NCBI GenBank assembly: GCA_944389185.1
Contig: CALXLL010000002.1
Coordinates: 19,004 to 83,003 of the forward strand
DNA length: 64,000 nt
Direction: 5' to 3'
Source of the DNA: an uncultured Alphaproteobacteria bacterium
GTDB lineage: Bacteria; Pseudomonadota; Alphaproteobacteria; Rs-D84
Of the stretch, positions 20,106 through 20,778 are shown piece by piece. The translations under genes and the position numbers were made by a program. The notes beneath the pieces were generated by a model. It had not been told where the DNA came from and made no database searches. It saw only the letters and a list, made by a program, of their open reading frames with translations. Every line of letters begins with the position of its first letter. Positions within the stretch are counted from its first letter, which is position 1.

Positions 20106-20123
20106 GCTGCAATTGTCAGCTTA
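20103..20123. terminator. shared hairpin overlapping the stop codons of both convergent islet genes
   Basis: TAAGCTG-CAATTGT-CAGCTTA (7-bp stem) with an A-run upstream and a T-run downstream. The TAA of the + gene (20103-20105) and the TGA of the - gene (20116-20118) lie inside the hairpin. Confidence 0.55.
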
Positions 20124-20778
20124 TTTTATTTATGTGTTTTACGATATTTTTTATATCAGGTTTTTTATGGCTTGGGTGATGGCATATTAATAAAGTTCTA
20201 TTATTTAGTTTAATTAAAATCCCGTCGTTGTTAATATTAGCATTTGTGTAATATTGCCAGTATTGAATCATTGCAGATTCAAATTCTTCTGCGCTGGTTG
20301 TGAATTGCATAATAAAACTTTCTATTTTTGAGATTCCGAAACAAATGATGATTCTAGATTTTTTATAAAAGTCTTGCCAAGCTTTGTTTTGATGTCGTGT
20401 AATGTCGCAAAAATTGTAATATTGTTCTTTTGTGAATCCTGTAAGTTCGTGTATATTAGTTTCGTCTTTTTTTGACCTACACGAAAAAGGGTAAAGATTG
20501 GCACAGAAAAAATTATTACTTTTATACATTTCTTCTGCGTTTTCACTTGGGTTATAATTAAGGTTGTTTAATATTTTCCAAATAAAGTTATTAAAAGGAC
20601 ACCATTCTTGATTAATAGGTTCGTTATTACCGTTTATAAGATTTATGTTATGTTGTTCGCAGAAATCATCAGCATTATTTTCCAGACCGCAGAACCATAA
20701 TTTTGCGTTTGGGTTGCCACCGTTATGACCTATGTTTGGGTTTTCTAAAAGCTTTGCTAGTTTTGTTTCTTTTTGCAT
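20116..20778 (-). CDS. orphan protein with uracil-DNA-glycosylase-superfamily-like motif order (hypothetical)
   Basis: 220 aa. AKLWFCGLENN (motif-A-like, res 25-35), FFCANLYPFSC (res 90-100), SRIIICFGISK (res 141-151) and TLLICHHPSH (HPS motif-B-like, res 195-204) occur in the order expected for the UDG fold. Very AT-rich codons. Confidence 0.4.
   Translation of the reverse strand: MQKETKLAKLLENPNIGHNGGNPNAKLWFCGLENNADDFCEQHNINLINGNNEPINQEWCPFNNFIWKILNNLNYNPSENAEEMYKSNNFFCANLYPFSCRSKKDETNIHELTGFTKEQYYNFCDITRHQNKAWQDFYKKSRIIICFGISKIESFIMQFTTSAEEFESAMIQYWQYYTNANINNDGILIKLNNRTLLICHHPSHKKPDIKNIVKHINKIS

Follow-up and report, generated by a model that had tools for sequence, protein, structure and literature searches.

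A new and very divergent family of predicted uracil-DNA glycosylase fold encoded next to tRNA-Gln in gut Alphaproteobacteria

The window analysed here is a stretch of 64,000 nucleotides from an uncultured Alphaproteobacteria bacterium of the lineage Rs-D84 (assembly GCA_944389185.1, contig CALXLL010000002.1, positions 19,004 to 83,003). It contains a gene for a protein that, according to its structure model and to profile comparisons, belongs to the UDG (uracil-DNA glycosylase) structural superfamily as a rare, highly divergent member and represents a new family. Our preferred reading, to which we give somewhat better than even weight, is that this UDG-like protein founds a new family of the superfamily, is probably an active glycosylase and has no functional tie to the neighbouring gene, which encodes a protein with an ART-PolyVal-like and an HD domain (ART-HD). 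DNA repair is the textbook role of the UDG superfamily, yet since 2024 very divergent members (Brig1-3) have proved to be anti-phage effectors. The substrate of the UDG-like protein would add either a seventh-plus UDG family with a new specificity or a new defence glycosylase, and it would show which DNA-base surveillance a drastically reduced (<1 Mb) gut symbiont retains. Candidatus Enterousia, a member of the order Rs-D84, has genomes of 0.75-1.0 Mb (PMC12306168).

The Protein Is Predicted to Adopt a UDG Fold

A UDG-like fold had been proposed for this protein in a first-pass annotation of the window, and AlphaFold modelling, Foldseek comparison with the UDG families and hhalign agree on it. 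The main AlphaFold model was calculated on an alignment of 29 family sequences, which is also the basis for all statements on conservation, and has a predicted local distance difference test score (pLDDT) of 93.4 and a predicted template modelling score (pTM) of 0.90. An earlier model made with a four-sequence alignment was mediocre (pLDDT 70); its best match in the PDB was already the family-4 UDG of T. thermophilus. When the PDB was searched with Foldseek, approximately 40 of the top 50 matches were UDGs of families 1-5 or UdgX, with 2d3y (family 5), 4zby (family 4), UdgX, TDG, vaccinia D4 and SMUG1 at the top of the list. The top UDG matches have Foldseek probabilities of 0.9-1.0 and template modelling (TM) scores of 0.41-0.50. 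In BFVD, which contains viral structures, a phage "UDG-like domain" protein scores best (E 1.4e-5).

For the profile comparison, a family-4 profile was built from homologues gathered with the T. thermophilus UDGA sequence, which is 100% identical to 1ui0_A. The hhalign alignment between this profile and that of the UDG-like family spans 102 columns (E 2.9e-4, probability 40%). At motif A it pairs GGNPNAKLWFCGLENN with GEGNPDAKLMIVGEGPG, putting WFCG-L-E-N-N over MIVG-E-G-P-G. The stacking phenylalanine F62 is aligned with F54 of family 4, NFFCANLYPF is placed on EVYITNIVKCRPP with N94 at the position of N80, and the cysteine C124 corresponds to C100. In beta3, IIICFG is found on IIVPLG, with G148 equivalent to G121. 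The alignment reproduces the order of motif A, Phe, Asn and beta3 that had been read from the sequence in the first-pass annotation.

The open reading frame itself is present on the minus strand and the four motifs described earlier are exact: KLWFCGLENN at residues 26-35, FFCANLYPFSC at 90-100, IIICFG at 143-148 and LLICHHPSH at 196-204. The strand order, which had been a guess, is borne out by the AlphaFold model, where the motifs lie on beta1, beta2, beta3 and the last strand; H201-P202-S203 comes after the strand formed by residues 195-199. G17, G20, G21, G31, L95 and P97 are invariant in the 29 family members. E33 is kept in 28 of them and is replaced by Asp in the remaining one, N94 and C146 are each conserved in 28, and position 62 is aromatic in 26. 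The histidine of motif B (H201) is present in 14 members, the subgroup of the window included, and 13 members have Phe at this position. The conservation across the 29 members shows that the motifs are more than chance. A new metal site made up of C30, C92, C146 and C199 was considered and rejected, as these are core-strand positions that are variably hydrophobic in the relatives.

The loci compared with the window are labelled L001-L020; an alignment of nine sequences served to find related loci. The ratio of nonsynonymous to synonymous substitution rates (dN/dS) of the UDG-like gene is 0.07 in comparison with the L012 orthologue (99% amino acid identity) and 0.15 in comparison with the one from L011 (86%), which indicates that the gene is under purifying selection.

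The Family Is Rare and Closest to the Family-4/5/UdgX Branch

The family escapes the sequence searches of Pfam, NCBIfam, PADLOC and the PDB. Searches with the UDG-like protein against these collections and against PHROGs yielded nothing or noise, and PF03167 does not match the window protein even at E<=10. Four of the 29 relatives show weak collinear matches to PF03167 of 12-17 bits, which is below the cutoff of 24.3. An hmmsearch with the family profile against the PDB sequences gave no match. Four relatives were returned when 5.8 billion proteins were searched by word index, and 30 family members when 1.84 billion representatives were searched exhaustively with phmmer. The carriers are metagenome-assembled genomes of gut Alphaproteobacteria ("uncultured Alphaproteobacteria" and "Rickettsiales bacterium"); one copy is found in Avibacterium (L009), where it comes after a small membrane/zinc-ribbon protein. 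Public sequencing runs that contain the UDG-like sequence are mostly chicken-gut metagenomes.

The best structural matches are family 4 (UDGa), family 5 (UDGb) and UdgX (PDB 1ui0, 4zby, 2d3y, 6ajp), which have the same alpha/beta fold. The UDG-like protein has in common with them the lead-in to beta1, the stacking Phe, the Asn that ends beta2, the Gly past beta3 and possibly the H-P motif past the last strand. Because the lead-in G-x-G-N-P-x-A-x-hhhh-G to beta1 is found in both, families 4/5/UdgX appear to be the nearest branch. The differences from these families are considerable. Motif A reads G-[IL]-E-x-x in the UDG-like family and GE[AG]PG or GLAPG in families 4/5/UdgX, an insertion of approximately 45 residues separates motif A from the Phe helix, and the helix Y120-x3-C124-x3-R128 is specific to the UDG-like family. 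The family-4 motifs GE[AG]PG and N-x-V-K-C-R-P-P are replaced by GLENN and NLYPF in the window protein. From the Fe-S cysteines of family 4 (C13, C16, C84 and C100) it keeps the equivalent of C100 (C124) alone; an N-terminal CxxC is missing and the equivalent of C84 is F98. Since only one of the four cysteines is retained, the UDG-like family is expected to lack the 4Fe-4S cluster of family 4.

The UDG-Like Protein Is Probably an Active Enzyme

In UDG families 1-3 motif A begins with GQD, GIN and GMN, respectively, and its catalytic slot is filled by Asp in family 1 and by Asn in families 2 and 3. E33 stands at this third position of motif A, as in families 1-3, although the residues GLENN themselves are non-canonical. 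The catalytic slot still holds an acidic residue, and both the Asn that would read the base and the aromatic residue on which it would stack are retained; the UDG-like protein is therefore probably an active enzyme working on a pyrimidine-type base. In the proposed mechanism such a base would be flipped from the DNA into the pocket, where it would stack on F62 while N94 would read its Watson-Crick face. The near-invariant E33, in the slot of the catalytic Asp (family 1) or Asn (families 2/3), would position a water molecule to hydrolyse the N-glycosidic bond, and H201 of the HPS motif would stabilise the leaving base.

The fold might also have been retained as a catalytically inert module that binds DNA or protein, like vaccinia D4 or the UDG-like domains of phage polymerases. 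Indeed, several of the Foldseek matches are to D4 and to phage DNA polymerases with a UDG-like N-terminal domain; in addition, the Pro expected in motif A is missing and not all family members have the motif-B His. However, a pure scaffold would not be expected to conserve either the acidic catalytic-slot residue or the base-reading Asn in 28 of 29 members, and the UDG-like protein is a single-domain protein without a fused or constant partner. We therefore regard an inert module as improbable.

Comparison With the Brig Defence Glycosylases

The most likely role of the UDG-like protein would be to survey DNA for bases that are unusual or modified, in a Brig-like anti-phage defence or in accessory repair. 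Brig1-3 are divergent anti-phage glycosylases of the UDG superfamily that excise modified bases, and their genes sit in AT-rich regions associated with mobile genetic elements (PMC11078745; bioRxiv 10.1101/2025.10.29.685425; bioRxiv 10.64898/2026.02.25.707755). Like the UDG-like protein, they are highly divergent, consist of a single domain and are missed by sequence annotation. The best structural match of Brig1 is the S. tokodaii family-4 UDG 4ZBY (PMC11078745), which is also among the best structural matches of the UDG-like protein. Brig3 is encoded together with BapA, which has an ASCH-like structure and trims glucosyl-5-hydroxymethylcytosine to 5-hydroxymethylcytosine (PMC13160076; bioRxiv 10.64898/2026.02.25.707755).

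The same two-gene layout is found in a sister clade of the UDG-like family (L002, L004, L005 and L006; 83-97% identity among the UDG-like proteins). There, a gene with an ASCH domain (PF04266, with a score of 27.8 bits that exceeds the cutoff) either ends 1-4 nucleotides before the start of the UDG-like gene or overlaps it, and both are followed by a choloylglycine-hydrolase gene. By analogy, these ASCH and UDG-like genes are a candidate module of a base-trimming enzyme plus a glycosylase. No ASCH gene was found near the UDG-like copy of the window, which thereby differs from Brig3-BapA. Further differences concern the residues: the published key residues of Brig3 (N50-P51-S52, E55, W100, D127 and N225) do not match the UDG-like motifs and set the two apart, and Brig1 has Glu where the UDG-like protein keeps the canonical Asn. 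The UDG-like motif strings are absent from the accessible part of the supplement to the Brig2 preprint. Thus, the defence reading is an analogy supported by context and not a demonstrated Brig membership.

Housekeeping Repair as an Alternative

A different role is suggested by the genomic position. In the window as well as in L001, L005, L006, L007 and L008 the gene is located close to tRNA-Gln and reads in the same direction, at a site downstream of the tRNA that is conserved across several Rs-D84-type genomes. It could encode a housekeeping repair glycosylase that replaces the canonical Ung or family-4 UDG in these reduced genomes and removes uracil or hypoxanthine arising by deamination from AT-rich DNA. 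Canonical residues of a uracil-type pocket are kept (the N80/N204-equivalent Asn, the stacking Phe, the acidic motif-A residue and the His-Pro-Ser motif B), which would suit this role, as would the purifying selection and the lack of copies in the phage and plasmid collections searched. But the congeners L013 and L018 (GyrA 95% identical) lack the UDG-like gene at this locus, and an extremely rare family of 30 representatives is not what a housekeeping function would predict. Its GC content is also lower than that of the genome: 30% for the UDG-like gene, compared with 33% for the ART-HD neighbour and 37% for the 64 kb window. Finally, the coupling to an ASCH gene in one clade resembles the Brig3-BapA defence operon.

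The steep divergence of the gene is best seen in L008. The outer synteny of this locus matches that of the window (TolC-MarR-tRNA-Gln ... tRNA-Glu ... GyrA), and its inner genes code for an HD protein, two GNAT-like proteins (Pfam confirms the downstream one), a membrane protein, DUF5662 and the UDG-like protein. The latter is just 34% identical to its window counterpart, whereas GyrA is 90%, TolC 67%, MarR 62% and MerR 54% identical, which again speaks against a housekeeping enzyme. Because the gene is patchy among congeners, low in GC, steeply diverged and in one clade paired with ASCH, our preference is, by a small margin, for an accessory or defence-like role, and we consider housekeeping repair a less probable, though serious, alternative.

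Several observations weigh against a new family of active glycosylases with a surveillance or defence role. The hhalign alignment ends short of motif B, the TM score with solved UDGs is only about 0.5 at an identity of 9-15%, and the motif-B His is changed to Phe in about half of the family. UDG-fold proteins without catalytic activity exist, an example being D4, the processivity subunit of vaccinia. No relatives of the gene were detected in phage and plasmid collections (tblastn) or in IMG/VR (pattern scan), and neither PADLOC nor PHROG has a match to the protein. The conserved adjacency to tRNA-Gln across the order and the purifying selection suit housekeeping repair equally well.

The surroundings of the gene differ between the loci. 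Near the UDG-like gene, L007 encodes a large serine recombinase and an FtsK-gamma protein, and L001 a tyrosine integrase and an excisionase. In L016, the distant family member P0016 adjoins an AbiEii/DUF6088 pair and an AAA/STAND-like ATPase of 755 amino acids; a match to a WYL domain in this locus is weak and sub-threshold. The L016 neighbourhood is defence-island-like. The recombination genes of L001 and L007 and the AbiEii/DUF6088 pair would suit an accessory or defence-like gene.

The Convergent ART-HD Gene Is a Neighbour by Synteny

The second gene of the islet had been described in the first-pass annotation as coding for an ART-like/HD protein, and this description holds: homologues match PF18760 (ART-PolyVal, up to 51 bits) and PF01966 (HD), whereas the HD domain of the window protein itself is detected weakly (E 6.8e-4). 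The ART-PolyVal+HD family comprises at least 90 homologues of approximately 440-510 amino acids; they are chromosomal and anchored by tRNA-Glu in Enterousia-like genomes.

From the tail-to-tail arrangement it had been hypothesised that the two proteins form an install-and-remove pair. DarT-DarG consists of an ADP-ribosyltransferase toxin and a macrodomain antitoxin; by the same logic, the ART-PolyVal/HD protein would install a bulky adduct on a DNA base (e.g., ADP-ribose) and the UDG-like protein would remove it, in a toxin-antidote or a mark-and-excise relation. The stop codons of the two genes are only 10 nucleotides apart and lie in a common hairpin, the neighbour does carry an ART-PolyVal-like domain, and Brig1 and Brig3 too adjoin enzymes that modify or de-modify nucleic acids. 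Furthermore, three related assemblies (L010, L011 and L012) retain both convergent genes despite a divergence that leaves 78-93% identity for ART-HD and 83-99% for the UDG-like protein. This retention is, however, confined to near relatives: GyrA, which among the three loci is carried by L010 alone, is 98% identical, and the retention is therefore explained by plain synteny.

Outside these close relatives each gene occurs without the other. ART-HD is present without the UDG-like gene in five loci with at most 56% ART-HD identity, and an obligate toxin could not persist free of its antidote. In L013/L014 and L018 (GyrA 94-95%, ART-HD 55-56% identical) the slot between tRNA-Glu and tRNA-Gln is filled by ART-HD and an unrelated orphan of 479-491 amino acids, which has no Pfam match and is 59% identical between L013 and L018. 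In L019/L020 (ART-HD 44%) genes for NADAR, GNAT, APH-like and HD proteins are nearby and no UDG-like gene is found within 10 kb. Conversely, an ART-HD homologue was sought in 12 UDG-like loci (L001-L009 and L015-L017) and none was found. Altogether, the two genes occur together in L010-L012 alone and none of the 17 other inspected loci holds both, so that the expected co-occurrence does not extend beyond close relatives and an obligate toxin/antidote relation is very unlikely.

The gene arrangement points in the same direction. The genes are convergent and separately terminated, form no operon and are not co-transcribed, the UDG-like gene having a promoter-like site of its own. The likeness to DarT-DarG consists of an ART-like gene beside a gene whose product might, in principle, undo or process an adduct on a DNA base; the window ART is of the ART-PolyVal type and fused to HD, and its neighbour has a UDG fold and is not a macrodomain or NADAR protein. 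The synonymous divergence (dS) differs 1.6- to 2.5-fold between the adjacent genes, being 0.054 versus 0.135 between window and L012 and 0.47 versus 0.74 between window and L011, which hints at separate histories. Between window and L012 the UDG-like protein is 99% and ART-HD 93% identical. Judged from the sequences, this gap suggests a recombination boundary near the common terminator or differing mutational or selective regimes.

An adduct pair of the DarT-DarG kind is thus a quite remote reading of the locus. We attach just as little credence to the version in which ART-PolyVal/HD would tag the bases of invader DNA (by ADP-ribosyl or another group) and the UDG-fold enzyme would excise them, leaving lethal abasic sites. 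If true, such a mark-and-excise system would be the converse of Brig3-BapA, whose partner trims a modification to make the glycosylase substrate, and such modular logic would recur, in a second variant, in the ASCH plus UDG-like operon of the sister clade. The attractive DarT/DarG-style pairing is neighbourhood synteny only, and we keep to the reading of a UDG-like protein that is independent of ART-HD.

NADAR-fold proteins reverse the ADP-ribosylation of guanine. In the distant genome of the L019/L020 type, ART-HD is located two genes away from the NADAR-domain gene.

Architecture of the AT-Rich Islet

The two genes form an AT-rich islet between two tRNA genes (Table 1). Both stop codons are located inside the terminator-like hairpin. 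The promoter-like site sits 24 nucleotides upstream of the ATG of the UDG-like gene, and copies of the tRNA-Gln terminator are found further upstream. Because of this predicted site and the upstream terminator copies, the UDG-like gene appears to be a transcription unit of its own. A sequencing run labelled as RNA-Seq (X15) was considered as a sign of transcription and rejected: its contigs span both genes, but they stem from a metagenomic library kept as contigs.

Table 1. Coordinates of the features in the window and in the related loci.
Feature	Locus	Position	Strand	Description
UDG-like gene	window	20116-20778	-	220 aa, ATG start; proposed new UDG-superfamily family
Parts of the UDG-like protein	window			motif A G31-L-E33; stacking aromatic F62; predicted base-reading N94 (NLYP); beta3 IIICFG; motif B H201-P-S
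ART-HD neighbour	window	18675-20105	+	476 aa; N-terminal ART-PolyVal-like domain and C-terminal HD phosphohydrolase; convergent with the UDG-like gene
Terminator-like hairpin	window	20095-20131	no strand	15-bp perfect inverted repeat, 7-nt loop; predicted bidirectional
Promoter-like site	window	20802-20829	-	TTGTGA, 16-nt spacer, TATAAT; consensus scan 10/12, pattern match only
Tandem array	window	20856-21268	-	2.4 copies of a 172-nt unit, between tRNA-Gln and the UDG-like gene
tRNA-Gln(UUG)	window	21255-21328	-	conserved landmark upstream of the UDG-like gene
tRNA-Glu(CUC)	window	18493-18568	-	other boundary of the AT-rich two-gene islet
ASCH gene	L002	2-139
ASCH gene	L004	4176-4562
ASCH gene	L005	7610-8008
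ASCH gene	L006	7611-7997
ART-HD copy	L013	10001-11419
ART-HD copy	L018	10001-11422
ART-HD copy	L019	10001-11374
Orphan gene	L013	11431-12906
Orphan gene	L018	11445-12884
Neighbourhood of P0016	L016	4427-8214
Stand-alone HD protein	L008	2214-2891
Stand-alone HD protein	L003	1-276
Stand-alone HD protein	L019	12147-12827

Each copy of the tandem array repeats the last 14 nucleotides of tRNA-Gln and its terminator hairpin, which results in three identical terminators in a row. The GC content of the array is 51%, compared with 37% for the window. Rfam identified the two tRNAs in the islet and gave no match in the tandem array. In L001, a 48-nucleotide partial copy of tRNA-Gln with its own hairpin is located directly upstream of the UDG-like gene. 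The possibility that the UDG-like gene is cargo between att sites was rejected: since the gene lies beyond the last tRNA-Gln repeat both in the window and in L001, it would be the flank of an integration hot-spot and not its cargo.

The tRNA-Glu(CUC) at the other boundary also flanks the ART-HD homologues in L010, L011, L013 and L014. A stand-alone HD protein of approximately 225 amino acids is encoded near tRNA-Gln, UDG-like and ART-HD genes in several loci; the copies from L008 and L019 are 83% identical, and the L003 copy is located directly upstream of the UDG-like gene.

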